Under the pieces are notes generated by a model. It was not told the origin of the DNA. It saw nothing but the letters and a program-made list of their open reading frames with translations, and did not search any database. Positions 17,296 to 37,134 of a stretch of 64,000 bases of DNA are shown piece after piece. This DNA comes from an uncultured Verrucomicrobiae bacterium (GTDB lineage: Bacteria > Verrucomicrobiota > Verrucomicrobiia > Limisphaerales > Palsa-1400): assembly GCA_963702845.1 (NCBI GenBank), contig OY969763.1, forward strand, positions 192,001-256,000, in the 5' to 3' direction. Every line of letters begins with the position of its first letter. Position 1 is the stretch's first letter. The position numbers were made by a program, and so were the translations under genes.

Positions 17296-18093
17296 ATGAA
17301 AAAGCGTATTGGGTCCAGAGGGGCGATCGCGCAGTCCGTAATTGCCGCTGCGCGACGCCCGGCGGTTGCGTCGGTTAAAGCTGCGTTCACGTTGATCGAG
17401 TTGTTGGTGGTTATTGCCATCATTGCGATCCTTGCGTCCATGTTGTTGCCAGCGCTGTCGAAGGCAAAAGCGAAGGGATTGCAAACGCAATGCATCAGCA
17501 ATAACAAACAAATGGCCCTGTCGTTTCAGATGTGGGCCGATGACAACAACGACGGCAAATACCCATGGAACCCTGGACGCGGCCAGGTCGGCGGCGCTGA
17601 TCCAAAGCAACTACGAACAAACTGGGTCGTGATACAGCATTATCTGAATAACCCAAAGGTGTTGACGTGCCCAGCGGATACAAAACGTTCGCCAATTCGC
17701 AGTTGGGTCGATTTCGGGGTTGTATTGGAGTTTCGAACCAACCTTAGTTACACCTTCTGTCTTGATTCAATGCCGAGCCGTCCGGGGGCTCTCCTGACCG
17801 CCGATAACTACTTTTCGAGCGATTATCCCGCCAACAAAACCCTCGCGTTGCCGGACAATGCCGCTAGTGGTTCTGATCATACATTCAATCGCCCGCTCTA
17901 CATTCGACGTGGTTGGTGGGCCAACGTCCGACACATGAATATCGGGGTTGCGAGCTTTTGTGACGGCAGCGCTCGCTCGCTCAAGTCAGAAAAACTGCAG
18001 GAGGCATTCCTCTTCATGTTTGATCATTATCTCACTGACCCGGCGGATAAGTTGACGTTTAAGTTCCCGCAATACACCCCCGTCCCATACTGA
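17296..18093 (+). CDS. Prepilin-type N-terminal cleavage/methylation protein with H-X9-DG motif (pseudopilin-like)
   Basis: [35 protein letters not shown] and H-MNIGVASFC-DG. Confidence 0.9.
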   Translation: MKKRIGSRGAIAQSVIAAARRPAVASVKAAFTLIELLVVIAIIAILASMLLPALSKAKAKGLQTQCISNNKQMALSFQMWADDNNDGKYPWNPGRGQVGGADPKQLRTNWVVIQHYLNNPKVLTCPADTKRSPIRSWVDFGVVLEFRTNLSYTFCLDSMPSRPGALLTADNYFSSDYPANKTLALPDNAASGSDHTFNRPLYIRRGWWANVRHMNIGVASFCDGSARSLKSEKLQEAFLFMFDHYLTDPADKLTFKFPQYTPVPY

Positions 18094-18601
18094 CCACTTG
18101 AGGTTATCGGGGTTTCGGGACCGAGCTGAAACGTTGTTGGTCAGCGCGAAACAATCGTTCGTCATCTTCGGTCGTTTCGTTTATTTGGGATTCACGCGAC
18201 CTGCTAATCGCGTTTTTTTGCCCTGTCGCCCGCCAGGTATTTGTCGCAAATCGAGTTTTCAGGACTGCGAAGCATTGCAAAACCGCTGATTTGAGAATCT
18301 TTTTCTCAACTGCGTTTTCCTCGGTTTTACGAGGGAAAACCGGGTGATCTAAGCTTTTTCCGTAATGTGGCATGAGATTTTCTATTGCAATGAATCGACT
18401 CTATGTCATATAACCGCCCTCGTAATAACCGAAGCGATGAGGATTGTATAAGTTACAATCGTTGTCATGGGACCGAATCGACGAGACACGATTTGGCCAA
18501 GTTACAAACGCTCCGCAGTCCCTGCGGAGCAGAAAGGAGTGTTCGTCCAGGCCCCGAGCATCGGTTCAAGGAGTGTTTTAATTTTTGTTTATTAGTGACG
18601 T

Positions 18602-19291
18602 ATGCCTATTCGCATTAATTTGCTAGCAGAGGCGCAAGCCACTGAAGATCTGCGTCGCCGTGACCCGGTAAAGCGGGGTCTATGGATTGGGGGCTTCCTC
18701 GTTTGTGTGGTTCTTCTCTGGTGCGGCAAACTTCAAATCGACATCTGGCGTGAAGGTATTACTCGAACTCGTCTTGAACGCGATTGGACGAGCAAGGAAC
18801 CTAAATTCAAGGTGCTGCTCGCGACGCAGGAGAGAGCGGATCGTCTTCAGGCGCTGATGGACGGACTGGATCGTTACTCGACCAACCGCTTTTTGTGGGC
18901 AAACGCGCTAAACGCCATCCAGCACAGCACGATTGAAGACATTCAGGTAACACGAATTCGTGGAGATCAGACATACGACATCGTTCGTGCCGAGAATTTG
19001 ACCAACAGCACGCCAAACGGTCCCGCGATCACGCACAAGCCTGGAATTTCCACCGAGCATATCCGGGTCGTGGTGGATGCCCGCGATTTCAACAACCAGA
19101 ACCAGACCTGGACGAAGTACAAAGAGTCGCTGGCTAAAAACGCTTATTTCAAACGCCACCTGAAGCGCGGCGAGGGATTCGTGCTTGACGGTACGCAAGG
19201 TGCCCCTGGCCGCGATCCGCTGGATCCATTACGCGAATTTGTGTCGTTCAGTTTGGTGACACATCTGCCGGAGGTGAAGCGCTATGAATAA
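18602..19291 (+). CDS. PilN/GspL-like inner-membrane alignment protein
   Basis: N-terminal RINLL motif (like the PilM-binding INLLP), one TM helix, coiled coil, then WANALNAI..IQVTRI. First gene of the coupled operon. Confidence 0.7.
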   Translation: MPIRINLLAEAQATEDLRRRDPVKRGLWIGGFLVCVVLLWCGKLQIDIWREGITRTRLERDWTSKEPKFKVLLATQERADRLQALMDGLDRYSTNRFLWANALNAIQHSTIEDIQVTRIRGDQTYDIVRAENLTNSTPNGPAITHKPGISTEHIRVVVDARDFNNQNQTWTKYKESLAKNAYFKRHLKRGEGFVLDGTQGAPGRDPLDPLREFVSFSLVTHLPEVKRYE

Positions 19292-19889
19292 CCTTCCAAA
19301 AGCGAAACGCGATCAATTGATTATAATCGTGGTGTTCACGCTGGCGATTATGGGAGCGCTAATATTTTTCGTAGTCGATGCGCAGAATGCGGAACTGAAG
19401 CGGACAAAATCGAAGACTGACACGGTGCGGGAGAAGCTGCTTCGGGCGGACAAACTGTCGCGAACGGAATCGGATCTCCAGGTCAGGTTCCAAAAGGTAT
19501 CAAAAGAGTTGTCGTCGCAAGAAGTATTGTTGGCCCCGGACCACGACACATATGCATGGCTGTTGCAGACTCTGACGCAGTTCCTCTCGGTGCATCGAGG
19601 TGCTGGAGTTACGCCGGCCGGTATCAGCCAGCCGGATATCGGTGAAGCTACGATGATTCCCAAGTTTGCTTATAAAGCCGCCACGTTCCACGTGAAGGGC
19701 AATGGCCACTTCCATGACGTGGGACGGTTTATCGCCGATCTCGAAACCGATTTCCCATATCTGCGCGTGCAGAACATTGAACTGTCGCGAGCCTCAGCTA
19801 CGTCGTCAGGCGGCGATATCGAGCTGCTGGGTGCTTCGTTTGACCTGGTGATGCTGATGCAACCCACAACTCCGATCGAAAACCGATGA
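19284..19889 (+). CDS. PilO/GspM-like protein
   Basis: TM helix, coiled coil and GHFHDVGRFIADLE..YLRVQNIEL (PilO-like). Overlaps the upstream gene by 8 nt. Confidence 0.75.
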   Translation: MNNLPKAKRDQLIIIVVFTLAIMGALIFFVVDAQNAELKRTKSKTDTVREKLLRADKLSRTESDLQVRFQKVSKELSSQEVLLAPDHDTYAWLLQTLTQFLSVHRGAGVTPAGISQPDIGEATMIPKFAYKAATFHVKGNGHFHDVGRFIADLETDFPYLRVQNIELSRASATSSGGDIELLGASFDLVMLMQPTTPIENR

Positions 19890-20413
19890 GCACGCCAATA
19901 CAATTTAAAGGCCATTTGGTCGGGTTAGTTTCGATAGCGGCGTTGTTTGTTACGACTGCGTTGATCGTCAGCGGTTGTGGTAATGCCCCGACAGGGGCGG
20001 CGCAGACTAAAAAAGGCGATGACAAGGCGAAAGTTTCGCAAAGTTCCACCAACGAGCTGGCGATGGAAACGAAAGCCGAGTTCGATGACGATTTGAAGAC
20101 GACGAAGGACCCATTTTTCCCAAATTCGAAACGTCGATACGGCAAAGCCGCGAATGGCAAGACAGTTGCTCAGCTACCGAGAGTGGCTGACCTCCGGTTG
20201 TACGGTGTGATCGGGTCGCCCGGCAAGTATATCGCCATGATTAACGACAAAACATTTGCAGAAGGGGACAAAACTCAGGTCTCAGTGGGATCCAACCAAT
20301 ACTTCGTAGTCAAGGTCAACCAAATCACCGCCAAATCCGTAACCATTAAGGTTGATGGTGAAGCAGCTCCACGCGACCTACAGTTGGACGCGGCGCAGGA
20401 GGCAAAGAAGTGA
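19886..20413 (+). CDS. PilP/GspC-like (lipo)protein
   Basis: Hydrophobic segment ending VSGC, the KDPFFP motif, and LRLYGVIG..AMINDKTFAEGD..VNQITAKSVTI (HR-domain-like). ATGA overlap with the upstream gene. Confidence 0.7.
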   Translation: MSTPIQFKGHLVGLVSIAALFVTTALIVSGCGNAPTGAAQTKKGDDKAKVSQSSTNELAMETKAEFDDDLKTTKDPFFPNSKRRYGKAANGKTVAQLPRVADLRLYGVIGSPGKYIAMINDKTFAEGDKTQVSVGSNQYFVVKVNQITAKSVTIKVDGEAAPRDLQLDAAQEAKK

Positions 20414-22133
20414 ACACCGGAAACACGAACGAACGTCAGTTGAGAATTGCAGATAAGCCTATGAAAATCAAAATGTCCCTCATTCTCGTCGTTGCACTTG
20501 CCGCAAGTGGCATTTGCCGCGCCGAAGTCCAGGACGCCGCCAAAACTAAAGCCGCCCCCGCTGGTGGCATGAAGGCGGTGGCCAACGCGGCGCCCGAAGA
20601 GATCGCCGCCGTCATCGAGTTTAATTCCGACACTACCTTGCCTCAGGCGGTTCAGACGCTGGCGCGCTCAGCCGGAATCAATATTCAATTTGACCCGGTG
20701 CTAATCAACGCCACAAAACCGGACGGCACGCCAATGCCGGCCCCGGTCGTCAATGCCGTGCGTTGGGAGAACATCACGCCCAAACAGGCGTTGAACGCGC
20801 TGCTTGATAACTACAACTGGCGTTTGGTGCAGGACGTCAATACCGGCATCTCGCGGGTGACACGCAAGGACACGAACTCCGAGCCAATGATCACCACGGT
20901 TGTGCAATTGAGCTACGCCAGCCCGACGAACATTGCTCATGCCGTTACGAACACGCTGTCTAAAACCAGCCGAATCATTCCCGACCTTCGCACCAGCCAA
21001 ATTATCGTTCTCACTCAGGAGAAGGAACTCGAAGGGTTGATTGCGCTGATCAAGAAACTGGACCGCCCAACAAAACAGGTGTTGATCGAAGCCAAGATCA
21101 TGGAAACGGTTCGCAACCCGTCGATCGATCAAAGGAATCAATTGGACGGATACACTTGCCGGGCAAAACTTCACTTTCGGAAATGGAGTTACAACCGGGA
21201 CAGTCAACTCAACGCAGACGACGGGAAGCGGCGGCACAGGTGCTGGCACAACCACGCCGAACGCGGGACACTTCCTATCGGGCGGCGACGGGCTGGCGGG
21301 CGGTTTGACGAACGTCACCCAGCTGATCACGTCAGTTGGCAACGGTGGACTCAGCGTGAACACGGCTCGTGGGTTTAGCCCGGCGACAGCGTTCCTGAAT
21401 GCGGACGGAGTTCATGCCGTGCTCTCGTTCCTGAATTCGGATTCGGACACGAAGTCTCTCGCCTGGCCGCGCACTGTTTCGCTGGATGGCGTCCCGACCG
21501 AACTGTCGGTCGTTCGCAACGTCCCGATTTTCGAACAGGACCAAAGCGGCGCCACCGGTAGCACTGGTCCCGTCGCCACTGCCAAGCCCATTTACGATAA
21601 AAAAGTCGGCAATACCCTGCTCAGCGAAGTGGGTATCAAACTCGCACGTTATTCCGCGCATCGTTGGTATGACCAACGTCTTGTTGGAAGTTGTGCCGGA
21701 AATCTCCGCCCAAGAAGCGCAGCCTGCAGTTCAGACCCTTAACGGTTAGACCTATACTGCGCCTGTTTTCTCGCGTCGCAAGATCACGACTCAGGCGACT
21801 GTCCCGAGCGGCTACACGCTGGTGCTCGGCGGTTTGGACAACGACAACACATCGAAGATCAACACCAAGGTGCCGATCCTCGGCGATATTCCTGGTCTTG
21901 GCATGTTGTTCCGCAGCGATTCGAAGCAACGGACGAAGCAGAACCTACTTATCTTCGTGACGCCAACAATCGTGGAAGACGGCGATTATCAACGCACGCC
22001 GACAGATTTCCTGAAGACGAAGTTTGCTCCGATACCGGAGAAGGATGAGACGGCCTGGGACAGTGCTCAGCCCTATGACTGGACCAAACCAAATAATCCT
22101 GATGAGCCTTGCAAGAGCCCGAAGGCCCAATAA
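20410..22133 (+). CDS. Secretin (PilQ/GspD family); two apparent frameshifts and one in-frame TAG
   Basis: N0/N3-like region (VQLSYA..DLRTSQIIV..IKKLDRPTKQVLIEAKIME) and secretin core (VGIKL..SGYTLVLGGL..KVPILGDIPGLGMLFRS..NLLIFVTPTIV). Breaks near 21125 and 21650; TAG at 21747-21749. Confidence 0.9.
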
Positions 22134-22157
22134 CGCGAACAAACGAACAAGCAACCT

Positions 22158-25100
22158 ATGCAACTAACGCGAATTAAATCCGCAAGCATAGCGAGGCACA
22201 TTATGAATAAAACAATTCGCCCGTTCGCGCCGGTGGCGGCCCTTTCGGTGGCATTGCTCTCCTTCGCACTGGCCGCCGTCGCCGACGTGGACGTGCAGAC
22301 GCTCGGTGGCGGTCGCTTGACCCAGGGCGGTCACGATTACGGTAATGCCAATGGAAATACCTACACCCAGGCGCAGTTTAATACGCCATGGGCAACAGCG
22401 CTTGATTCGTCCGGCACCATGTATATGGCCGATCGCTTGAATAATACGATCCGCCAGATTTCAAAGGTTGGCGATTTGCAGAACAGCCAGACCACCAACT
22501 ACATTAACGGTTTGATTTTGAACGCGCCGATCGGCGTCGTTGTAGATGGCAGCGACAATCTTTACGTTCTGACCAGCGACAACGTTGTTCGCAAATACAA
22601 CCAGTTCAAAAACCTGGTCGCTTCGAATTATCTCGGCAACGTGTCGGGACCGAGCGCGATGACGCTCGCGCCTAATGGCACAAGCCTTTATATCTGCTAC
22701 ACCAGCGGCTGCATTTTCGAGGTTTTCCAAAATGGAACCACGCGCCTGGTGCTAAGTAACTGCGGAACGATGCGCGGTATCGGCGTGTTGCCGAGTGGTG
22801 AAATCGTGGTCAGCCTCGGAAACAGCTCGTCGTTTACAAACGCGATCATTGTTTGCTCCGCTAACAGTCCTGACCCGGCAAATCCGGTGATTCGGTTGTT
22901 AGCCGGCAATAACGGCACGGGATTTGTTGATGGCACGGCTGGTTTCGCGAAGTTCAATGGTCCGCATGGTTTGGCCGTGACGGTCGATGGCAAAGTTATT
23001 GTCGCTGATCGCTACAACAACCGTGTTCGCATCGTTGACGGCGCCGGCACCACGACGACGCTTTACGGCATCGACCCAGCGAATTGGAATAGCTCCTATT
23101 TCCCCGGATGGGTGGATGGCAGTCAAACTGACGCTGCATCACGCGAGCCGGTGAGCGTTTGCATTTCGACAAACGGCTTGGTGTTTACAACAGAAGTCTA
23201 TTACCACCTCTTACGTGAAGTTACTGGCAGTGGGCTGACCACAGGCACTACTGGCGGTGGAACCAACATTGTCCCAGTGACGGTGCTGCCACCAACGTTT
23301 ACTCCGAGTTGCGGCTACTATCCGCAATGCCAAACCATCACGGTCAATACCTCCGGCGGCAACGTGTATTACACCACCGATGGCTCTGAACCGACGACCA
23401 ACAGTTTTTTTGTCGCGACGCCCAACAACGTCGGCACGTTTAACTGGTGCAACTCAACTAACAGCCTGACCAGTCTGCGCATGAAGTCGTTTGTTGGACC
23501 GAATTCGAGCACGACAGTCGCGGGCGGCGCTTGTGGCGACAACGAAATTGGATTCACGAAAGACGTGAACGCCGGTGTTGGCTCGACGGTGGTTGTTCCC
23601 GTTGTGGTTTCGTTGCAAACGAGCGGAGTGCTGAAGTCGCTGCAATTCCGCGTTGAAGTAAATTCTGCGAATGGCACGCCGGACGCGGTGACAGAATTCG
23701 AAGGGTTGTCGGTTGGTGCGAACGACTTCATTTCAGTTGTCGGACCCACAAATGCAACAATTACGAGCTACTCTTACACGAACGCAAGCAACGGCCGAGG
23801 GCTAGTGGTGTCGGCGACTGGGACAAGCGGCTTCAATGTGAAAAACTATGGCGTGGTGGCGATGTTGAAGATCACCATCCCGACCACATGCACGGTCGGA
23901 CAATCGTATTCCTTGAGCATTCTCTACCCGTCGGCGACATCCGATGGCATGCAGGCAGACGTTCCAATGACGACCATGCCGGCGCGCAGTCTCAATATTC
24001 AAACGATTCAGTACTTGGCGGGCGATTCGTCACCTGGGCGTTGGTATAACGCCGGTGATTTTGGCGACTCAGTTCTCACGAGCTCAGACGTTAACAATGC
24101 GCTTTATGCCTCTATGGGTATTCGTAAGCCATGGGAATTCACTGATGCCTTCCAAGCAATGGATACATACCCGGAAACATCTACCCAAATTGGTGACGGC
24201 CGTATTAGATTGCTGGATTGGCAGACGATTCTGTTCCGTTCTGTCGGACTCACTAATGATAACTGGTTGCGTTACTGGGACACGACCGGCGACTTGGCGC
24301 ACGTCCCGACATCCCAGACGGTTACGCCGCATGGTGTGACTCCTCGATTCGTTGCTGCTCCTGGCACGATTTGGTTGCGTCAGGCGGTGATCGGATCAGC
24401 CGTTGCTGCAAATCAGCTTCCGGGCAACGTATGCTCGTTGCCGGTGTATGCAAAAGTCGGAACCGGTTTCAGCCTGGCTGGCTTGCAGTTCCGCGCGACG
24501 CTGCTACCCGAAGGTAATGCTCCGACACCAGGCGCAATAACCTTCACGCCGGCACCGAATATTACAGGTGGCCAGGTGTTGCCGGGGCTCTCCGCAAACG
24601 ACATCGTTTGCGCATGGTCGCTCGGCACGTTGGCTTCGCCGTTGCAGAACAGCAACCTGATCGGCCAAATCACCTTCACCGTACCGGGCGCAGCGCAAGT
24701 GGGACAGCACTATACTTTGCGGTTCTCTTATGTCGATGGCGCCCCCGATATTAATACCCAGTATGATTTGGAGAGTTTCCCCGGTTCAGCTTGGGTGATG
24801 TCCGCGGCTATATCTGCGCCGTCATCCACCTCCGATGAATGGAAGATTAACTTCTTTGGCAGCCTGACCAACGCGCTGGCTGCTGACAATGTTGATGCCG
24901 ATAACGACGGCGTCCCCAACTGGAAAGAATACCGGGCCGGCACAAATCCGAACGACGTGGGTTCGTTCCTCCATTTCACTTCAGCGATTTCTGCTACCGG
25001 TGCCACCACGCTGACGTGGCTAAGCGCCCCGAATAAAACGTATATCATTGAAGGTGCTTCATTAATCAACGCAACAACCTGGACCACTGTCAGCAGTGTT

Positions 25101-25181
25101 GTGGGTGATGGCAACGTGAAACAGGTTACTGAACCCAACACTGGCACAGTCCAATTCTATCGTATCCGCCTGCAACCATGA
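22158..25181 (+). CDS. Exported NHL-propeller protein with CHB_HEX_C-like, cohesin-like, dockerin-like, cohesin-like and FYR-type domains
   Basis: Signal peptide (start may be 22203). AQFNTPWATALD and AKFNGPHGLAV NHL repeats; YYTTDGSEPT; GDFGDSVLTSSDV..AMD..GDGRIRLLDW; DADNDGVPNWKEYRAGTNP; ends QFYRIRLQP. Confidence 0.85.
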   Translation: MQLTRIKSASIARHIMNKTIRPFAPVAALSVALLSFALAAVADVDVQTLGGGRLTQGGHDYGNANGNTYTQAQFNTPWATALDSSGTMYMADRLNNTIRQISKVGDLQNSQTTNYINGLILNAPIGVVVDGSDNLYVLTSDNVVRKYNQFKNLVASNYLGNVSGPSAMTLAPNGTSLYICYTSGCIFEVFQNGTTRLVLSNCGTMRGIGVLPSGEIVVSLGNSSSFTNAIIVCSANSPDPANPVIRLLAGNNGTGFVDGTAGFAKFNGPHGLAVTVDGKVIVADRYNNRVRIVDGAGTTTTLYGIDPANWNSSYFPGWVDGSQTDAASREPVSVCISTNGLVFTTEVYYHLLREVTGSGLTTGTTGGGTNIVPVTVLPPTFTPSCGYYPQCQTITVNTSGGNVYYTTDGSEPTTNSFFVATPNNVGTFNWCNSTNSLTSLRMKSFVGPNSSTTVAGGACGDNEIGFTKDVNAGVGSTVVVPVVVSLQTSGVLKSLQFRVEVNSANGTPDAVTEFEGLSVGANDFISVVGPTNATITSYSYTNASNGRGLVVSATGTSGFNVKNYGVVAMLKITIPTTCTVGQSYSLSILYPSATSDGMQADVPMTTMPARSLNIQTIQYLAGDSSPGRWYNAGDFGDSVLTSSDVNNALYASMGIRKPWEFTDAFQAMDTYPETSTQIGDGRIRLLDWQTILFRSVGLTNDNWLRYWDTTGDLAHVPTSQTVTPHGVTPRFVAAPGTIWLRQAVIGSAVAANQLPGNVCSLPVYAKVGTGFSLAGLQFRATLLPEGNAPTPGAITFTPAPNITGGQVLPGLSANDIVCAWSLGTLASPLQNSNLIGQITFTVPGAAQVGQHYTLRFSYVDGAPDINTQYDLESFPGSAWVMSAAISAPSSTSDEWKINFFGSLTNALAADNVDADNDGVPNWKEYRAGTNPNDVGSFLHFTSAISATGATTLTWLSAPNKTYIIEGASLINATTWTTVSSVVGDGNVKQVTEPNTGTVQFYRIRLQP

Positions 25182-28100
25182 GTACGCACCTGGAAAAAAA
25201 TCTATTGAAAGTGAAAATGAATACGCGTCTCACCACCCTCGCCCTCGGACTAGTCCTGTCGGTTTCGACATCTTTGCACGCGCAAAATGTCGCCACGGTT
25301 ATCTCGTCCAACTTGTTTGAACCGAACAGCGTTGCCGTTGATGCCAACAACATCGCGTATCTGACCGACGGTGCGAACAATCGTATTATGAAATACGACC
25401 CATCCACCGCTGCTGCTACGCTGTTGGCGGGAAATATCGCCGCTAACGGTACCAATAACGGCTTAGGCGCTTCTGCCCGATTTTTTCAGCCGGCCGGAAT
25501 TGTTTACGCCCGAGGCGGGCTCGTGGTTGCAGATTCAGGCAATCAACTGCTGCGCTTCGTCACCTTGAATGGTGTAGTCAGTAACCTTGCTGGTGTTTAC
25601 AGCAGCTCTGGTGGCTATGTCGAGGGTGCGGCGAATTCAGCTCAATTCAGCTTTCCGCTGGGGCTCGCTACCGATGCGAATGGAAATATCTACATTGCAG
25701 ATTCGGGCAACAATGCAATTCGCGTGCTCGATACAAACAACGTTGTCTCTACGTATAAAACTGGGTTCTACCAACCGTCTGCCGTTGCGGTGGGTGATAA
25801 TGGTGATCTCTGGGTGGCGGACACTCGCAATGACATGATCGTTAGGGTGGACTCGAATAAAGTGGCTACGGTGATGGCTGGCGCAAAGAAGGTTGTGGGG
25901 ACGGACGATGGGCTCCCCTCGACGGATGCGCGTCTGAATTTGCCAAGTGGATTGTTGTGGGTAAACACGGCAACGGGGCTTCTGATTTCTGACACAGGTA
26001 ACAATACGATCCGCCGTCTTTATTATGATAACGCTGCGCAAGCGTGGTCGCTGCAAACGGTTGCGGGACAAGCCGGCCAGGCGGGTGAGCTCGATGGCAA
26101 TCCTAACACCGCCAAATTCAATGCGCCACTCGGCCTTACCTTCGACGTTCAGGACAGCGGGTTTTATATAGTTGACAACTCTGGCAATGCGCTGCGTCGC
26201 TTGCAGACAAGCGCGCCGCAGCCGGCCGTTTCCGATCCAGCTTTGGGATGGGTTGATTTCCCGCCGAATAACTTAGGAGAGAGGCTTTCGGTGTTTAAAA
26301 CCGTGGTTCAAAGTGTCTTCAACAATGATGTCATCATTGCGGTCAAGACTGAAACTGGTGTGAAAACGTACATTACTTCGGGTCCGACGCCAACCAACGC
26401 GTTTGTTGATACGATCCCAACTCCCGGTCCAATTACCGGAACGACGCCCCCAACGTACATTGGCGATAATCTTCCGGCATCAGAATGCGCGCCGACGATT
26501 GTTGGACCATTGCCGGATCTGACCATCAAAGCTATCTGTATGGCTGATGGTCGGCGCCCTAGCTCTGTCGTTAGTGCGCGATATCAGTTCCAGGTCGGAA
26601 ACCCGGTCATCTATGGAACAAATGGCTATTTTCTGCAACTTTCGAACATCACTTCGGGTGCAATGATGTATTACACTATCGATGGAAGCGACCCGACGAA
26701 CGATCCGACGGTAAGCCTCGGGCCCGTTGCGAACGGGGACTTTATTACGCTACCTTTTCCCACCAACAGCTTCGTGCTGAAGGTTCGCGGGTATAAGAAT
26801 AACTATGTTTCGAGCGGAGTGGTCGGCCAAACGCTCTCTCCGACGAACTTCATCGCCAACAACTTGACCTTTGGTTTCGGTTCGGGTGAAGCCTCCAGTC
26901 AGTTCATTGCTGCCGCCGGCCAACGTTTTTATGCGCCGGTCACGTTAACTCTCTTGGGCGGTCAGAAAATGTATTCACTGCAATTCAATGCCACGGTGAC
27001 CAACCTGACCGGGCCAGCGGTCGGCACAACGTTTGACTTTCGATCGTTTTTGGAAAAGCCAACATCCAACGGAGTATTCACTATTATACCTCCGGCGATG
27101 TTTGACGGGACCAGTGTTTCAGGCATGGTTTTCACCAACACGAGCGAAAACCTGCTTGGTGTCGGCTGGTTTGAACGCTTTACGCAGACGAACCTTTATA
27201 ACAGCCAAAGCCAAGACTTGATTACCTACTCCCAGCCGCACGATACGCAGTTTCTCAGCGCAAAAGGAAAAGTGGTGCTCGGTGGCTATTCGTTCGTCGT
27301 CCCGACATCAGCAGCAATGGGCCAAACCTACCAAATTCAGCTCGACCGACCGTCGGCGAGCGCTAATGGTATCAACCAGTCTGCGATTATTCTTGCCCCT
27401 ACAAACGGTGCAATAAAGACGGTAACTGTTGGGTCGATCCCTTATGTTGTTGGAAGCGTCGCACCCTTCCAATGGTTCAACGCCGGTGATTTCGGTGACG
27501 GTACCATCAACAACGTCGATGTGCTCCAGGTATTTCAATCAGCGGTTTATGGTTTCAACAGCCCTCCGCCTGGAAGCGACTTCTTTGACGCGATGGATTC
27601 TTCGAATGGCGGCAGCAGTTCGCTGGACGGCGATGACACGCTAATAAATAATATCATGACGGGCGACCAACAACTACAAGTAGATGATATTTACGTTACG
27701 TTCCGCCGCTCTTTAGATCCTTCACTGACTTGGTATGCCCGATATTGGTCGAACGGCGTTCTCAATGTGGTACCTGTGGCTAACATCGGCACCGGCAGCA
27801 TGTCCGCAAGCTCTAAGCAAGCTGTCGCGCCAAAGATTTCGTCGTCACCCCGATGGGCAAACGTTGCTCCGGATGATATTCAAGCGCCAGCTGGTTCGAC
27901 GGTACAAATCCCCGTTCGCGCTTCAATTGCTGGCAACCTGCCCATCCGCGTCATGGCTGTGAATATTGACGTGCAAGGTTTGGACGGTTCTCCGATTATC
28001 AACTCCCAGGTTTTGTTCGCTCCTGCGGCGGGTTTGGGCTCACCAACATTTAGCGCATCACAGGGTGCTGGCAATACGGCGGGTGCATGGCTGGACTCGA

Positions 28101-28654
28101 CGGTTGCCGGCGTTAGTGGGACGAACATTCTGGGCATGTTGACGGTTAGTATACCGACGAACGCAACTGCCAGCTCTGCCTGGAAAGTGCACTTCAGTCA
28201 CTTGAGCGTGTCGCCGAACGGGGTGGGCTTGTTCCCGCTCACGATTCAGGACGCGTTGATCACGACGGCGAATCGCTCCGGTTCAAGCTGGGGTGACGGC
28301 ATCCCTGATTCATGGCGCTTGCGTTGGTTTGGTTCAGTTTCGAACCTGCTCTCAGGCGCGAACCTTGATCCAGACGGCGATGGCCACTCTAACTACGCCG
28401 AGTATGTGGCGGGAACTAATCCGTTGGACGGCATCTCGCACTTGAATGTGACCTGCCCGAGCGGCGCTTTTCGCAGTGCTCTGACATGGCCTTCAGTGTT
28501 CGGTAAGAAATATAGCGTGGAGTGCAGCTCTACGTTGTTTGGCGGAAGCTGGTCGTCAATTGCGACGAACCTGCCTGGCACTGGGCAACCGCAGCAGTTC
28601 GCTGATCCTAATCCGGCGAATGTCATGCGATTCTATCGCGTGAAGGTGCAGTAG
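25178..28654 (+). CDS. Paralogous exported NHL-propeller protein with the same cohesin-like / dockerin-like / cohesin-like / FYR-type architecture
   Basis: ATGA overlap with the previous gene. NHL repeats; YYTIDGSDPT; WFNAGDFGDGTINNVDV..FDAMD..GDQQLQVDDI; DPDGDGHSNYAEYVAGTNP; ends RFYRVKVQ. Confidence 0.85.
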   Translation: MSTHLEKNLLKVKMNTRLTTLALGLVLSVSTSLHAQNVATVISSNLFEPNSVAVDANNIAYLTDGANNRIMKYDPSTAAATLLAGNIAANGTNNGLGASARFFQPAGIVYARGGLVVADSGNQLLRFVTLNGVVSNLAGVYSSSGGYVEGAANSAQFSFPLGLATDANGNIYIADSGNNAIRVLDTNNVVSTYKTGFYQPSAVAVGDNGDLWVADTRNDMIVRVDSNKVATVMAGAKKVVGTDDGLPSTDARLNLPSGLLWVNTATGLLISDTGNNTIRRLYYDNAAQAWSLQTVAGQAGQAGELDGNPNTAKFNAPLGLTFDVQDSGFYIVDNSGNALRRLQTSAPQPAVSDPALGWVDFPPNNLGERLSVFKTVVQSVFNNDVIIAVKTETGVKTYITSGPTPTNAFVDTIPTPGPITGTTPPTYIGDNLPASECAPTIVGPLPDLTIKAICMADGRRPSSVVSARYQFQVGNPVIYGTNGYFLQLSNITSGAMMYYTIDGSDPTNDPTVSLGPVANGDFITLPFPTNSFVLKVRGYKNNYVSSGVVGQTLSPTNFIANNLTFGFGSGEASSQFIAAAGQRFYAPVTLTLLGGQKMYSLQFNATVTNLTGPAVGTTFDFRSFLEKPTSNGVFTIIPPAMFDGTSVSGMVFTNTSENLLGVGWFERFTQTNLYNSQSQDLITYSQPHDTQFLSAKGKVVLGGYSFVVPTSAAMGQTYQIQLDRPSASANGINQSAIILAPTNGAIKTVTVGSIPYVVGSVAPFQWFNAGDFGDGTINNVDVLQVFQSAVYGFNSPPPGSDFFDAMDSSNGGSSSLDGDDTLINNIMTGDQQLQVDDIYVTFRRSLDPSLTWYARYWSNGVLNVVPVANIGTGSMSASSKQAVAPKISSSPRWANVAPDDIQAPAGSTVQIPVRASIAGNLPIRVMAVNIDVQGLDGSPIINSQVLFAPAAGLGSPTFSASQGAGNTAGAWLDSTVAGVSGTNILGMLTVSIPTNATASSAWKVHFSHLSVSPNGVGLFPLTIQDALITTANRSGSSWGDGIPDSWRLRWFGSVSNLLSGANLDPDGDGHSNYAEYVAGTNPLDGISHLNVTCPSGAFRSALTWPSVFGKKYSVECSSTLFGGSWSSIATNLPGTGQPQQFADPNPANVMRFYRVKVQ

Positions 28655-28671
28655 CCCAAACAACAAATCAT

Positions 28672-28712
28672 AAGCAAGAACCCAGGAATATTTTCCTGGG
28701 TTCTTTGCTTTT
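28672..28712 (+). terminator. Intrinsic terminator closing the secretin/NHL operon
   Basis: gaacccaggaa-tatt-ttcctgggttc followed by tttgctttt. Confidence 0.8.
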
Positions 28713-28879: not shown

Positions 28880-30323
28880 CTATTTTACTGCAATTTCTTG
28901 TTTGATCTGGAACTTCTCAATGCGTTTGCGGAGCGTCGCGCGTGTGATTCCCAGAAGTTTCGCCGCCTGGACCTGGTTCCCTTTGGTTTCGAGCAGTGCC
29001 TGAATGATCAACTCGCGTTCGACCGCTGGGAGAACTTTCAGTTTACTGTTCTCACGAGCCCAGGAAAAGAGCGTCTTGCTGATAGATGCAAAATCGGGAG
29101 AACCGGACGCCGTGCCTGTGCTCGTTGATGTTGGCGCAGGGGCGGTGAACTGTCCTTTCGAAATTTCCCCCGGCAAATCGCCCGGCAAAATAACATCACC
29201 TTTGGAAACAACCGTGGCGCGCTCAATGACGTTCTCAAGCTCACGAACATTTCCCGGCCAGGTGAATTCCTGCAATAGCCTGAGAGTTTTCTCCGAGATT
29301 GCTTTCGGGCTGCCGTTCTGTTCTGAGGCGAATTTTTTTAAGAAATAGCTGACGAGCAGGGGGATATCGTCTCGGCCGCTCGCGTAAAGGCGGGATGCGC
29401 ACGCGGACGACGTTGAGTCGATAAAACAAATCTTCGCGGAACGCGCGGGCTTCCACCGCCTTCTCTAACGGCCGATGTGTCGCCGCAATGACTCGAACAT
29501 CTACCCGGATAGGCTGATTGCCACCAACGCGTTCAAATGTGCCATTCTGTAGGACGCGCAGAATTTTTGCCTGTGTCGGCAACGACATGTCACCAATTTC
29601 ATCTAGGAAAATGGTGCCGCCATTGCACTGTTCGAATTTGCCGATGCGCTGCGAAACCGCGCCTGTAAAAGCCCCTTTTTCGTAACCAAACAATTCGCTC
29701 TCGAGCAAGGTATCGGGAATAGCTGCGCAATTGATTGCGAGGAAAGCTTTGTCACCGCGTTTGCTGTGATTGTAAATCGCTCGCGCGACCAATTCTTTTC
29801 CGGTGCCGCTCTCGCCGGTGATCAGTGCCGTGGCATCGCTGGCGGCGAGTTGGCCGATCAACTTGAACACATTCTGCATCGGTTCGCTTCGACCGATGAT
29901 TCCCAAATCGTAATCTTCCGATTCGAGCAGCGGTTGATAGGAGACAACCTGCTTCATGTCACGCGCGGCTTTTAGCGCATCGAGAACGAGTTGTTTCAGC
30001 TTCGGGACATCGAACGGCTTGAGCAAATAATCGTAGGCACCCAGCTTCATCGCTTCGATAGCCGTTTGCGTGCTGCCGTAAGCGGTCATCATGATGACCA
30101 TTTGTTTGGAATTAAACTGGCGCAGTCGCCGCAATGTCTCCAGGCCGCTGATTCCACCCATACGAACGTCCATGATCACGAGATCAGGCTTAACTTTTGG
30201 GATGAGTTTGAGCCCTTCTTCGCCGCTGTTGGCAGTGGTGAGTTCGATGTTCGCGCCGTCGAAAATGCGGCGGAACGAGTATTGCACGTCCGCTTCATCA
30301 TCGATTAGCAGCAGTTTATCCAT
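28880..30323 (-). CDS. Sigma-54-dependent response regulator (NtrC/AtoC family); one frameshift near 29370
   Basis: Receiver LLLIDDE, GESGTGKE, GAFTGA, FLDEIGD, WPGNVRELEN and Fis HTH (GNQVQAAKLLGITRATL). Confidence 0.92.
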
Positions 30324-30411
30324 TGCTACGAGGATAGGAGCGCGGCGCCATCTTTGCAATCGCCGAGCCGATTTGCCAAATGCCCGCCGTACCTTATCCT
30401 TAACAAGTCAT

Positions 30412-31961
30412 ATGAATCGCCCCGTTCACGCCGGCCCGCCAAGCCCGGAAGAGTTTCAACGCCAATTGCAGGAATTCATGCGCCAGCACCTGTCTGGTGG
30501 CGCGATGCCCAAGTCCGACGTGTCCGATAACACCGAACAGACCGCGCCCGATGGTGAGGCTGCCGCATTCGAATTCGACAAAAAACCGCGCGATATCAAA
30601 GCTTACCTCGACCGCTTCGTCATCAAACAAGAAGACGCCAAAAAAGTCCTAAGCGTCGCGATATGCGATCATTACCATCACGTGCGGCTGGGCGATGGAA
30701 GGCAGGGAGCAGTCGAATTACGCCAAGCAGAATATTATTTTGGTCGGCCCAACAGGCGTCGGTAAAACGTATCTCATCAAAAACGCCGCCGATCTTATCG
30801 GCGTGCCGTTCGTCAAAGGCGATGCGACGAAGTTTTCCGAAACCGGCTATGTCGGAGCGGATGTCGAAGATCTCGTGCGCGAGTTGGTTCGTCGCGCGGA
30901 TGGGAATGTCGAGCGCGCTCAATACGGCATTATATACATAGATGAGATCGACAAAATCGCATCTGCTTCGAACGCGCACGGGCGCGACGTGAGTGGCCGC
31001 GGTGTTCAAACCAATTTGCTTAAGCTAATGGAAGAAACCGAAGTGCCCGCGCGTTCGCCGAACGACATCTCTGGCCAAATCCAGGCGATGATGGACATGA
31101 CCCAACGCAACAAGAAATCGGCCTCGACCATCAACACCAAGCACATTTTGTTCATCGTCAGCGGCGCGTTCGATGGTTTGGAAAAGATCGTCAACAAACG
31201 CGTTCGCGAAGCGCATATTGGCTTCGCTCATCAGGATCAGCAAGTGAGCCGCCGATTCCGTGATGATTCAGGCGCAAACACGCGACTTCATCGAGTTCGG
31301 GTTTGAACCGGAATTCATCGGGCGCCTTCCAGTGCGTGTTGTCTGCCAGCCTTTGGACGAAAGCGATCTCTTCACGATCCTGAAATCTTCGGAAGGCAGC
31401 ATCATCCGTCAATATGAGCAAACCTTCGCTGCTTACGGCATCGAAGTGCTGTTCCGAGATGACGGCCTGCGCCGGATCGCCGAACTGGCGGTCGCCGAAC
31501 AAACTGGCGCGCGCGGTTTGATGACCGTTTGCGAACGCATTTTCCGCGATTTCAAATTCGAACTGCCGTCAACGCTTGTGAAACGCTTTGTCGTTACGCG
31601 TGAACTGGTCGACAATCCGCAAGCCGAACTGGAGAAACTTTTTGCCGAACACAAAAACGAAGAACGGATCGTCGCGCGCCAGATCGTTCACGATTTTGCC
31701 GAGCGCTTTCGCGAAAACCACAAACTCACTATTCGTTTTTCCGAAGCGGCTGCCGACAAAATCGTTTCACAATCCTTCGCAGAGGGTATCCATATCCGCG
31801 ATCTTTGCGCCGCGCGTTTTAAGGATTTTCAATTCGGCCTCAAATTAATCGCGCAAAACACCGGCCAAACCGAGTTCCAAATCGACGCCGATGCCGTCGA
31901 TACGCCGGACAAGGTGCTGAGTGAATGGGTGGTGAAGAGTTATCGGACACCTAATTCGTAA
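30412..31961 (+). CDS. ClpX-like AAA+ ATPase lacking the N-terminal zinc-binding domain, with a C-terminal extension; two frameshifts
   Basis: [53 protein letters not shown] loop, PEFIGRLP and TGARGL. Confidence 0.85.
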
Positions 31962-34634: not shown

Positions 34635-35994
34635 ATGACGCCAGATTCTCCTGCATTTCAAACTCGCCGTTCATTCATCAAAAAAGCCGCGACTGCCGCC
34701 ACCGCTGCCGCTGCTGTCGGCACGAACATTTTTAAAACGCCCGTTTACGGCCAGACCCAGGCGCCATCGCCCGGCCGCGTCATTGGCGCGAATGATCGAA
34801 TCGTGGTTGGTTTTGTCGGCACCGGCAAACAAGGCCGCACCCATGTTCGTTCTCAACGAGGCCACGCCGCCGAAAACAACATCGCCATTGCCGCAGTATC
34901 CGACCTTTACACGAAGAATCTGGAGCGTGGCGCCAAAAGAAGCCGGCGTGGACGCGGCGAATAGCTACGCCGACTACGAAAGATTACTCGAACGTAAAGA
35001 CATCGACGCCATCACCGTCGCGACGGTCGACAATTGGCACGCGCAAGTAGCTTCGACGCCATGAACGCCGGCAAACACGTCTATGGCGAAAAACCGATGG
35101 CGCGTTACTTGATGGAAGGTTTCGACATCTACGACACGCAAAAGAAGACCGGCAAAGTTTTCGTGGTCGGTTCGCAATATTGCGCTGATGCCCAGGTCCA
35201 CAAAGCCGCCGAATGGATCAAGGCCGGCAAAATCGGGCAACTCGCGTGGGCGCAAGGTTCCTATTGCCGCAATAATCCCAAGAACGATGAGTGGGAATTT
35301 GAAGTTGAAAAGGACCTTAGCGAAGCGAATGTCAATTGGCTTAAGTGGCAGGGCAAAGCGAAAAAAGTTCCGTTTGACGGCCATCGTTATTCGAGTTGGC
35401 ACAAGTATTTTACCTACAACTCAGGCATTCTCGGCAACCTGCTCTCGCATCTTGCCCTTCCGTTATTGATGGCGACCGGCAATGCCGAATTCCCACGCCG
35501 CGTCGTTTGCACCGGCACACGCAAGATTTCGACCAATCGCGAAATTCCCGACACAACTCATTTGCTCGCCGAATACCCGAGCGGCCTCACGGTCTCGCTC
35601 GCCGGCAGCACTGTGAACGAACTCGGCGTTCCGCAAGATCATTCGTGGACGCAAAGGAAGCATCTTCTTCGCCCAAAGCCAAAATCACGCCGAACTCAAA
35701 CCCGAGCGCATTTTCGCCGAGGACATCGAAGCAGAACAATTTTCGTCACCTGCCGCAATCGGCAAAATCGAAAATCTTGAGAAAAACTTCTTCGATTGCA
35801 TTCGCAACGGTAAAACGCCTTACGCCAACGTTGATCTCGCGTTGAAAGTTCACACCACCTTGTGCCTCGCCGAAATGTCCGAACGCTTGCAAATGACCAT
35901 GCTGTTCGACGATAAGACCCGTAAAATCAGCAGCGGTGACGGGCGAGAAATTCTGGCGATGACTTACGACACGGAAGTCCCCCCGCACGCATAA
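34635..35994 (+). CDS. Tat-exported Gfo/Idh/MocA-family oxidoreductase; three frameshifts
   Basis: TRRSFIKK Tat motif, GANDRIVVGFVGTG, IDAITVATVDNWH and GKHVYGEKP. Confidence 0.88.
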
Positions 35995-36108: not shown

Positions 36109-37039
36109 CTATGCCGCACCGACGGCGCCGACTGTTGCTTCTAAACTCGCGATATCGGACACGTTCAATGATTGCGCATTCTTATCGATGCGCTTCATGA
36201 ACCCTGTCAACGCAGCGCCCGGCCCCAGTTCGATAAACCGCGTAAAACCTTGCGCCAGCAGATAGCGCATCGAATCTTCCCAGCGGACCGACGACGTGAC
36301 TTGGTCGACTAGTCGCTCTGCGATTTCGCCTGTTGTGCCGTGCGGTTGGGCTGTGACATTCGAAATCACCGGCACTTTCGGCGCAGACATCTGCACTGCA
36401 GCCAGCATGTTTGCACTTTCGGCTTTGCACTCGCCATCAAACGCGAGTGATACGCGCCAGCCACCGGCAGTGCCAGCGCGCGCTTCGCGCCTTTGGCTTT
36501 GGCCAGTTCGCAAGCTCTCGCGATTTTGTCGGCTTCACCTGAAATGACAATTTGGCCGGGGCAATTCAGATTTGCCATTTCGACATCAGCTTCCTGCAAA
36601 CTTCGCGACAATGGCCGGCTCTAGATTCAACACCGCCGCCATACCACCTTTTGTGACGTCGCACGCTTCCTGCATGAAACGACCGCGTTGACGCGCAATG
36701 CGCACGCCGTTGTCGAACGAGAAAACATCCGCAGCCGCGAGCGCAGTCAGTTCGCCAAGAGACAAACCAGCCGTCGCTTCGAAATTGCAGTTCGGGACGC
36801 GTTGCTTGAGCAACTTGAAATGCGACCCAACTCACGACAAAAATTCCGGGTTGGCAATTTTCGGTCTTTGTCAGTTCGGTTTCGGGGCCGTTGAAACAGA
36901 TGTTGGCGAGATCGAACCCGAGAATTTCATTGGCGCGATCGAACCATTTTTTAGCATCAGGAATTTGTTCGGCAAAATCTTTGCCCATGCCGACGTATTG
37001 CGCGCCTTGTCCAGCGAAGATGAGTGCGGTTTTGGTCAT
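36109..37039 (-). CDS. fabD: Malonyl-CoA:ACP transacylase; three frameshifts
   Basis: FAGQGAQYVGMG, AGLSLGE, ANLNCPGQIVISG, LPVAGAYHS, QVTSSVRW and FIELGPG. Confidence 0.93.
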
Positions 37040-37134
37040 ATTTTCTTTTATCAGAGCCGCGCGCGTGAGCAAGCGGTTTGCATGCTAGATCGCCGCGTTA
37101 CCGCTTGCTCACGCACGCGGCTCTGCTTTGGTGA

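Follow-up and report, generated by a model that had tools for sequence, protein, structure and literature searches.

A pilMNOPQ-type gene cluster followed by genes for large NHL-repeat proteins, conserved across the Limisphaerales

We analysed a stretch of 64,000 nucleotides, hereafter the window, from an uncultured Verrucomicrobiae bacterium (Limisphaerales, Palsa-1400; assembly GCA_963702845.1, contig OY969763.1). The genome is a single contig of 6.03 Mb, and the window spans its positions 192001-256000. It carries a cluster of six same-strand genes for PilN-, PilO- and PilP-like proteins, a secretin and two large NHL-repeat proteins, here called NHL1 and NHL2. An earlier interpretation of the locus, made from the DNA letters and their translations (the sequence-only reading), had described it as an accessory secretin gate, lacking its own motor, dedicated to two cohesin-dockerin-cohesin NHL proteins. 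The features of the cluster, in window positions, are as follows.

18602-19291, plus strand: PilN-like protein of 229 aa; open reading frame (ORF) with N-terminal MPIRINLL, one membrane helix and a periplasmic domain
19284-19889, plus strand: PilO-like protein of 201 aa; ORF with a membrane helix and coiled coil followed by two alpha-beta-beta motifs
19886-20413, plus strand: PilP-like lipoprotein of 175 aa; ORF with a lipobox
20410-22133, plus strand: secretin gene of the short N0-N1-secretin type, frame interrupted; from Pfam and alignment to orthologues
22158-25181, plus strand: NHL1, 1007 aa; ORF with Pfam NHL, CHB_HEX_C_1 and Fn3_assoc
25178-28654, plus strand: NHL2, 1158 aa, paralogue of NHL1; ORF with Pfam NHL (1.6e-24) and TSP3_bac
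28676-28705, terminator-like on both strands: hairpin of 13 pairs, closing the cluster and a convergent regulator gene

The six-gene layout was as the sequence-only reading had given it. Start and stop codons overlap at 19284 (8 nt) and at 19886, 20410 and 25178 (4 nt each), 24 nt separate the secretin from NHL1 (22133 to 22158), and a hairpin whose 13-bp stem is followed by a T-rich tail closes the cluster 22 nt past the last stop. For the secretin, NHL1 and NHL2 the choice of start codon is ambiguous, each signal peptide starting at an internal methionine, and so the overlaps and the 24-nt gap hinge on the start chosen. Scans for sigma-70 promoters (10 vs 9.1) and for terminators (15 vs 17.8) were at chance level overall, and only the hairpin at 28676-28705 was exceptional among the terminators, by its stem length. 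Judging by the spacing of the genes, the NHL genes are likely co-transcribed with the machine genes. A sigma-54 promoter ahead of the cluster was rejected as evidence: its pattern had 40 matches in the window with at most two mismatches, against 36 expected, and the single match in the spacer 18093-18602 (at 18368) lacks the -12 GC.

The genes at 18602-22133 encode PilN-, PilO- and PilP-like proteins and a secretin, that is, parts of a type IV pilus-like envelope machine, in agreement with what had been proposed for them. For the first gene, a profile built from 17 orthologues found the Myxococcus xanthus PilN (3jc8_Na) as its best match in the Protein Data Bank (PDB), with an E value of 4.4e-5 over residues 1-133. 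The motif MPIRINLL occupies residues 1-8, and an INLL-type motif is present in 14 of the 17 orthologues. No Pfam or NCBIfam family matched this protein, and Pfam PilN was absent even at E values up to 5. The second protein matched NCBIfam GspM with an E value of 9.4e-6 (25 bits, the cut-off being 60). Its AlphaFold2 model (predicted local distance difference test score, pLDDT, 76.3) consists of a long helix and two alpha-beta-beta motifs, and the top Foldseek matches were M. xanthus PilO 3jc8_Oa (5.2e-6) and Pseudomonas aeruginosa PilO 5uvr (6.2e-4) and 2rjz (8.7e-4), with Amuc_1100 lower down (0.026). The third protein has the lipobox VSGC at residue 28, and a lipobox-like motif is found in 9 of 12 orthologues; the best PDB matches of its profile, M. 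xanthus PilP 3jc8_Pa (E 0.037) and the GspC HR domain 2lnv (E 0.079), are both weak and non-significant.

The secretin was recognised by Secretin_N in its first piece and by the Secretin profile, at positions 96-169 only, in its last piece. No AMIN domain was found by Pfam in the first piece, which matched Secretin_N and, weakly, STN. Its closest PDB structures are GspD 5wln (2.6e-47) and then PilQ (about 3e-34). When an intact orthologue was compared with NCBIfam, it scored 168 bits for GspD (TIGR02517, cut-off 351), 146 for PilQ (cut-off 284) and 86.5 for the Amuc_1098 family (NF042912, cut-off 750), the last over the C-terminal 76 residues only. In a small secretin tree, to which long-branch caveats apply, 19 orthologues grouped in one clade (100/100) that sits on a long stem and is separate from the other secretins of the genome.

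The gene order and the tight spacing of the cluster are conserved across the order. A scan of named contigs found 222 relatives, of which the best 80 were kept, all from Verrucomicrobiota; the lower-rank labels, where given, were Limisphaerales, Limisphaera, Pedosphaera and 'subdivision 3'. A relative of the N-terminal part of the secretin was found in 38 of the 41 genomes of the genus, family and order. Among 20 fetched loci, 19 showed the order PilN-PilO-PilP-secretin-NHL1-(extra NHL)-NHL2, and the twentieth has a 1551-aa RCC1-repeat protein in place of the NHL protein. PilN- and PilO-like genes were present in 64 of the 69 loci with at least 3.5 kb upstream. Downstream of the secretin, we considered the 67 of the best 80 loci with at least 3 kb of sequence, counting an NHL gene if it started within 500 nt: an NHL paralogue was found in 54 and only an RCC1 propeller in 8, giving a propeller protein in 62 of 67. 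The next large same-strand ORF begins at most 45 nt past the secretin stop in 58 of 73 loci, with a median of 17 nt. The pairing of secretin and NHL genes, which the sequence-only reading had proposed to check across Verrucomicrobiota genomes, is conserved in these loci.

In the wider phylum, the PilN type was detected in 6 of 300 further genomes sampled, all weakly, and those listed were labelled as the same class or phylum. One of the six, labelled 'same phylum' (G141, L152:2289-15324), has a set of PilM/N, PilO-like and secretin (700 aa) genes, and 731 nt past the secretin lies a gene for a protein of 3402 aa that has NHL-like repeats and shares the C-terminal module of the proteins described below. 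Within the library searched, no paper linked Verrucomicrobia, a secretin and NHL repeat proteins, and searches on Verrucomicrobia with cohesin, dockerin or secretin, on Limisphaerales with type IV pili and on Limisphaera with pili returned nothing relevant. The order-wide operon is a so far undescribed form of a known machine type.

Both NHL proteins bear N-terminal signal peptides and match Pfam NHL (PF01436; 2.5e-14 for NHL1 and 1.6e-24 for NHL2). Their domains are of extracellular type: besides the propeller, Ig-like and cohesin-like ones. The AlphaFold2 model of NHL1 (pLDDT 76.7, predicted template modelling score, pTM, 0.41) gave the following architecture, in residues.

N-terminus: signal peptide
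45-356: six-bladed NHL propeller (AlphaFold2)
380-446: small beta-sandwich (AlphaFold2)
462-614: larger beta-sandwich, cohesin-like 1 (AlphaFold2)
642-695 (domain limit 642-718): three helices, dockerin-like (AlphaFold2)
743-880: larger beta-sandwich, cohesin-like 2 (AlphaFold2)
after 880: TSP3 region
941-1005: final beta-sandwich (AlphaFold2)

Foldseek and VIA were run on the whole 1007-aa model, and the lists of matches were filled by the propeller, which resembles the NHL domains of TRIM71, TRIM2 and Lin41 (VIA Z 30-33, root-mean-square deviation 2.2-2.5 over 260-290 residues; Foldseek E about 1e-12). NHL2 shares the same C-terminal architecture, with 25.5% identity to NHL1 over a 709-column alignment of the C-terminal part, and its orthologues take the last position of the cluster in the relatives.

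The cohesin-dockerin-cohesin arrangement proposed for these proteins received only weak support. The two larger sandwiches of NHL1 show homology to one another (hhalign 97.6%, E 3e-12), and in searches with profiles of the sandwich modules cohesins made up 4 of the top 6 PDB matches in one case and 6 of the top 9 in the other, with E values of 0.01-0.05. Pfam Cohesin (PF00963) scored 10.7 bits against a cut-off of 24.1 (E 0.63, profile positions 7-132 of 139). A cohesin-like identity of the two modules is thus weakly supported by these profile matches. For the intervening stretch, the dockerin part of the proposal found no sequence match, either in Pfam (PF00404, E up to 5) or among PDB profiles (E up to 10). 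The model shows three helices at 642-695, the outer two each preceded by an Asp/Gly-rich loop, giving two D-x-D/G-type loops, and this predicted fold is only compatible with a dockerin.

The last 95 residues or so form a C-terminal module, made of a TSP3 region and a beta-sandwich of about 70 aa ending in RFYRV/RLQP, which is common to the NHL and RCC1 proteins. In the window it lies at 24894-25178, 28367-28651 and 5137-5421, and no Pfam family was found for its beta-sandwich. In the whole genome the module closes 55 ORFs: 44 copies lie no more than 9 residues from the stop, and 8 sit about 330 residues ahead of it. It is present in 40 of the 41 relatives. Across the phylum it was found in 106 of the 300 sampled genomes, vs 6 of 300 for the PilN type. 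One genome, 96% complete (G031), has 16 module matches and none to the secretin N-terminal part or the PilN type. On these counts, the module was rejected as an export signal of the gate: it is general to the phylum and not tied to the gate. It has the look of a domain that sorts or anchors the surface proteins of Verrucomicrobiota.

We then consider the inner-membrane parts. Whole-genome scans gave no match to PilM_2, T2SSE, T2SSF or Peptidase_A24 within the window, as had been noted before. The conclusion drawn from this, of an accessory gate without a motor of its own, found no support, because PilM is merely displaced. In two order-level relatives PilM lies directly before the first gene of the cluster, and its orthologue here, with 48% identity, is intact at genome positions 4994486-4995631, 4.8 Mb away. 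Of 63 named loci with 5.5 kb or more of upstream sequence, 41 have PilM immediately before the PilN-like gene. Of the 22 loci without it, 18 are 49-76% identical to the query, including the fetched loci of the genus and family, and 4 are divergent; in all five family genomes searched, PilM is intact and away from the cluster. The cluster is therefore a pilMNOPQ operon from which, in one family, pilM has been moved elsewhere.

An ATPase and a platform gene are also absent beside the cluster, which is ordinary, since in model type IVa pilus systems pilMNOPQ is encoded apart from pilB, pilC and pilD. A pilB-pilT-pilB-pilC cluster lies at 6.5-12.4 kb of the genome, about 200 kb from the secretin cluster, and encodes two PilB-like proteins (565 and 566 aa), a PilT-family protein (450 bits, cut-off 319) and a PilC-like protein of 438 aa. 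Prepilin peptidase (Peptidase_A24) has two loci, and about 60 tblastn matches to the prepilin-type N-terminus (N_methyl) were obtained in the genome, that of the window gene at 17296-18093 among them. A stand-alone gate, borrowing the motor of another system and serving only the two NHL proteins, would suit a window free of PilM, ATPase, platform and peptidase genes and a genome with several ATPase and platform paralogues elsewhere. It is nonetheless improbable, given a cognate PilM that exists, is conserved and is adjacent in most related loci, and given that type IVa pilus systems as a rule encode pilMNOPQ in an operon of its own.

The displaced PilM ends a small operon (L038:8451-13023, genome about 4994450-4999020, minus strand) that also has a 234-aa gene, a gene of the prepilin type with weak likeness to Verru_Chthon cassette protein C, and a gene for a DUF7305 protein of 734 aa. 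In 2 of the 3 family genomes viewed, PilM is likewise preceded by a DUF7305-like gene. The pilMNOPQ set is not the only PilM/secretin set of the genome: a set of the Amuc_1098/Amuc_1101 type lies at 3.485-3.492 Mb (Amuc_1098_fam 364 bits, over the C-terminal half and with TPR; Amuc_1101_fam 488 bits). The genome further encodes a full type II secretion system (T2SS) at 1.05-1.07 Mb and, near 3.98 Mb, a second set that is T2SS-like. At about 2874700-2881900 (L043:3745-10899) we also observed four tandem paralogues of 430-535 aa with sigma-70 regions 2 and 4 of the extracytoplasmic function type and long C-terminal extensions, one of which bears a weak resemblance to positions 51-119 of the Secretin profile (E 4.6e-6).

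The fourth gene had been taken for a single ORF. It is not: its frame is interrupted three times, which the sequence-only reading had missed. The reading path runs in frame 1 from 20410 to about 21126, in frame 2 from about 21128 to 21643 and in frame 0 from 21645 to 22133, and the longest ORF from 20410 ends at 21378, with 322 aa. The secretins as called in 19 related loci are uninterrupted, with 561-650 aa, and the two same-genus orthologues (574 and 578 aa) have no interruption. The lesions, and the other conserved genes of the window whose frame is split, are listed below.

About 21120, plus strand: lesion 1, one extra base, frame 1 to frame 2 (alignment with two same-genus orthologues)
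About 21643, plus strand: lesion 2, one extra base, frame 2 to frame 0 (alignment with two same-genus orthologues)
21747-21749, plus strand: lesion 3, in-frame TAG where relatives have CAG or TTC (alignment with same-genus orthologues)
28883-30359, minus strand: sigma-54-dependent response regulator of the NtrC type, convergent with the cluster, frame-split (Receiver, Sigma54_activat, AAA lid, HTH_8)
30653-31958, plus strand: ClpX/HslU-like ATPase, split (AAA_2 in 30653-31303, D2-small in 31248-31958)
34998-35777, plus strand: GFO/IDH/MocA oxidoreductase, probably split
36369-37084, minus strand: FabD-like acyltransferase, split (profile positions 3-78 and 144-203 in different frames)

Reading frames were surveyed with 75 ORFs, taken from a genome of the same genus, that have an orthologue here; the alignments cover 27.8 thousand residues. 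Three of these genes occupy more than one frame in our genome, namely the secretin, a 444-aa membrane protein (3682411-3683702) and a squalene-hopene cyclase (5591613-5593678), and a fourth case was ambiguous. The cyclase has five frame changes. Of the frame-changing indels in the three genes, 11 of 13 are +1 insertions. Genes of other secretion systems are split as well: a T2SSE ATPase in three pieces (3980854-3982015), a T2SSF platform gene in two (3992356-3993328) and the T2SS GspD in pieces of 520 and 437 aa (L042:12029-14919). Among about 55 sulfatase genes 3 are split, which corresponds to about one lesion per 27 kb. A whole-genome scan flags one TAG in the secretin. Public soil metagenome contigs (151-260 nt) over 20300-22300 left the sites 21120, 21643 and 21747 uncovered, and over the squalene-hopene cyclase region they consisted of short pieces of other organisms only.

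These patterns suggest that the breaks are probably assembly errors rather than decay, because conserved genes nearby are frame-broken too and nearly all of the indels are single-base insertions. The other possibility is that the secretin and its system are a true pseudogene in this strain, with the gate killed, the regulator dead and the NHL genes either leftovers or gate-independent. Three lesions within 630 bp, amid 19.4 kb of intact large neighbouring ORFs, speak for such decay, as do the split parts of the other secretion systems; moreover, at the sulfatase rate three hits in 1.7 kb would be unexpected if errors were independent. On the other side, the broken genes nearby include normally indispensable ones (the ClpX/HslU-like and FabD-like genes), and the pieces of the five-times shifted cyclase are still 80-96% identical to the same-genus orthologue. 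Bacterial pseudogenes show a deletion bias, opposite to the insertions found here, and the secretin pieces are as conserved as intact neighbours (76-83%, vs 76% for NHL1). Taken together, we regard true decay as rather unlikely. With assembly errors as the most likely cause, the organism probably has an intact gate despite the three frame breaks. More generally, in an assembly with clustered single-base insertions in conserved genes, broken genes need read-level checks before they are given a biological reading.

To which use would such a machine be put? The interpretation that we favour, at about even chances, is that genes of a pilus-like machine are joined in one transcript, as is likely, with the NHL genes, and that the NHL proteins are carried through the outer membrane, or held at it, by that machine. 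It is the conserved gene order and spacing, and only these, that suggest export or display of the NHL proteins by the machine. In such a mechanism, the PilM encoded 4.8 Mb away would bind the INLL N-terminus of PilN, and PilB, PilC, PilT and prepilin-type proteins from elsewhere in the genome would build a short fibre on the PilN-PilO-PilP scaffold. The NHL proteins, exported by Sec and folded, would leave the periplasm via the secretin, like cargo of the T2SS or like TcpF and CofJ. They would then remain on the surface, possibly joined via their cohesin-like and dockerin-like modules. A bolder version, in which the Limisphaerales machine solely delivers two or three giant NHL/RCC1 proteins that join via cohesin and dockerin into a branched, cellulosome-style surface lattice fed by the secretin, appears very unlikely to us.

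Several observations weigh against machine-dependent export or display. Five of the 67 loci have no propeller gene after the secretin, co-transcription is read from spacing alone, the PilP match is weak, and the intact secretin orthologue stays under every NCBIfam cut-off. The C-terminal module is widespread without the gate, as its distribution across the phylum and the cluster-free G031 indicate, and therefore proteins of this kind reach their place gate-free in many lineages. If the lesions in the secretin were real, the gate would be dead while both NHL genes are intact, which would argue against dependence. Finally, the full T2SS of the genome could export the NHL proteins. Some of these points belong equally to a scenario in which the NHL proteins are not cargo: they would be exported by Sec and by another route (the T2SS or an unknown shared path), and merely be switched together with the secretin, for example by the sigma-54 regulator during attachment. 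Besides the complete T2SS and the excess of the module over the PilN type among phylum genomes, the 55 module-bearing ORFs of this genome, with the module at the very end in 44, and the sigma-54 activator as a conserved neighbour are in keeping with co-regulation only. Conversely, the gaps of at most 45 nt in 58 of 73 loci, the persistence of the pairing across the order with two types of propeller and a sigma-54 promoter pattern that is not above chance before the cluster all speak against it. A functional unit fits better than mere co-regulation, because of the tight gaps and of the order-wide pairing with both NHL and RCC1 proteins, and we take co-regulation alone to be a possible but somewhat unlikely explanation.

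The NHL proteins could also be parts of the machine, as pilus-tip or secretin-associated adhesins built into or onto the fibre. PilY1 is a propeller tip adhesin, and the NHL proteins combine a beta-propeller with a TSP3 repeat of the calcium-binding type and occur as two or three paralogues in a fixed order within a pilus gene cluster, as one might expect of counterparts of the beta-propeller proteins PilY1/PilC. Yet Pfam and NCBIfam report no similarity to the PilY1/PilC family, the propeller is N-terminal and not C-terminal, and minor pilin genes are not adjacent, the pseudopilin-like genes sitting with PilM at 4.99 Mb. This makes a role as machine parts improbable as well.

We compared the cluster with known systems. 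The type IVa PilMNOPQ machine (M. xanthus 3jc8; P. aeruginosa PilO 2rjz/5uvr) has the same gene order, an INLL-containing PilN, the PilO fold, a lipoprotein PilP, to which the predicted lipoprotein here is only weakly similar, and the secretin last. PilM is adjacent to the cluster in most relatives, and the best PDB matches of three of the four proteins come from the type IVa machine. The differences are that the secretin here is short (about 575 aa, with N0, one N domain and the secretin domain), has no AMIN domain reported and is slightly closer to GspD than to PilQ by profile score, that PilM is displaced in this family, and that two or three giant propeller genes follow pilQ. AMIN domains are typical of proteobacterial PilQ and not universal.

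With the T2SS, the cluster shares a secretin gate and large, folded, Sec-dependent proteins encoded alongside. Cargo genes lie beside the machine in some T2SS, as for pullulanase PulA with the pul genes and for SslE/YghJ with the T2SS-beta of Escherichia coli. The partners of the secretin here are, in contrast, split proteins of the PilM/PilN/PilO/PilP type and not GspL/GspM/GspC, and the secretin stays under the GspD cut-off. Concerning the modules of NHL1, non-cellulosomal cohesin- and dockerin-like modules are said to be widespread outside clostridia, an observation attributed to Peer et al. in 2009. The likeness lies in two homologous sandwiches with cohesins as best PDB matches, flanking a three-helix stretch with two D-x-D/G-type loops; unlike those modules, the ones here gave no significant match and have no enzymes attached.

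The closest published system is the PilQ cluster of Akkermansia muciniphila, yet it is a different set. The Amuc_1098-Amuc_1102 cluster, from the same phylum, likewise has a PilM/PilO-like/secretin set, and the fold of Amuc_1100 resembles that of the PilO-like protein here. The PilQ Amuc_1098 was shown in the outer membrane (PMC4960237). The set of the Amuc type is separate within our genome, the secretin of the window has no TPR N-terminus and the Akkermansia cluster has no NHL genes. As for cargo of pili, published work describes TcpF, encoded in the TCP (toxin-coregulated pilus) operon of Vibrio cholerae, as secreted by the pilus via a minor pilin (PMC9565799, PMC10120004). TcpF and CofJ, the latter of the CFA/III pilus of enterotoxigenic E. 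coli (ETEC), offer the likeness of a soluble exported protein that is encoded in a pilus operon and exits in a pilus-dependent way (PMC9565799, PMC10120004, PMC6048534). Their systems are type IVb pili, and the proteins are small and bind the tip minor pilin by an N-terminal segment. The NHL proteins here are longer than 1000 aa, are multi-domain and come as two or three paralogues.

Turning to the borders of the cluster, the sigma-54-dependent regulator has Receiver and Sigma54_activat in 29241-30356 and AAA lid and HTH_8 in 28883-29272, in the other frame. Its full orthologue has 485 aa, and it is a neighbour of the cluster in 10 of the 20 fetched loci. The neighbours past the regulator showed no conservation with the relatives tested. 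Upstream lies the prepilin-type (N_methyl) gene at 17296-18093, followed by terminator-like hairpins at 18112-18213. Neither this gene nor a PATR protein is a conserved neighbour of the cluster, with one weak case among the 20 loci.

Verrucomicrobia of subdivision 3 (Limisphaerales/Pedosphaera) are abundant in soils and peat and have many giant surface proteins. Nearly every genome of the order that was searched has an operon of the pilMNOPQ type, with large propeller proteins nearly always in the position of cargo. It offers a specific candidate, open to testing, for how such cells attach to surfaces or pass their giant proteins through the outer membrane, and the cluster is also present in cultured Limisphaera isolates. 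Should the NHL proteins turn out to be dependent on the gate, the system would represent a type IVa-like machine whose giant cargo is encoded in its own operon; the pilus cargo of this operon-borne sort found in print, TcpF and CofJ, belongs to type IVb systems.

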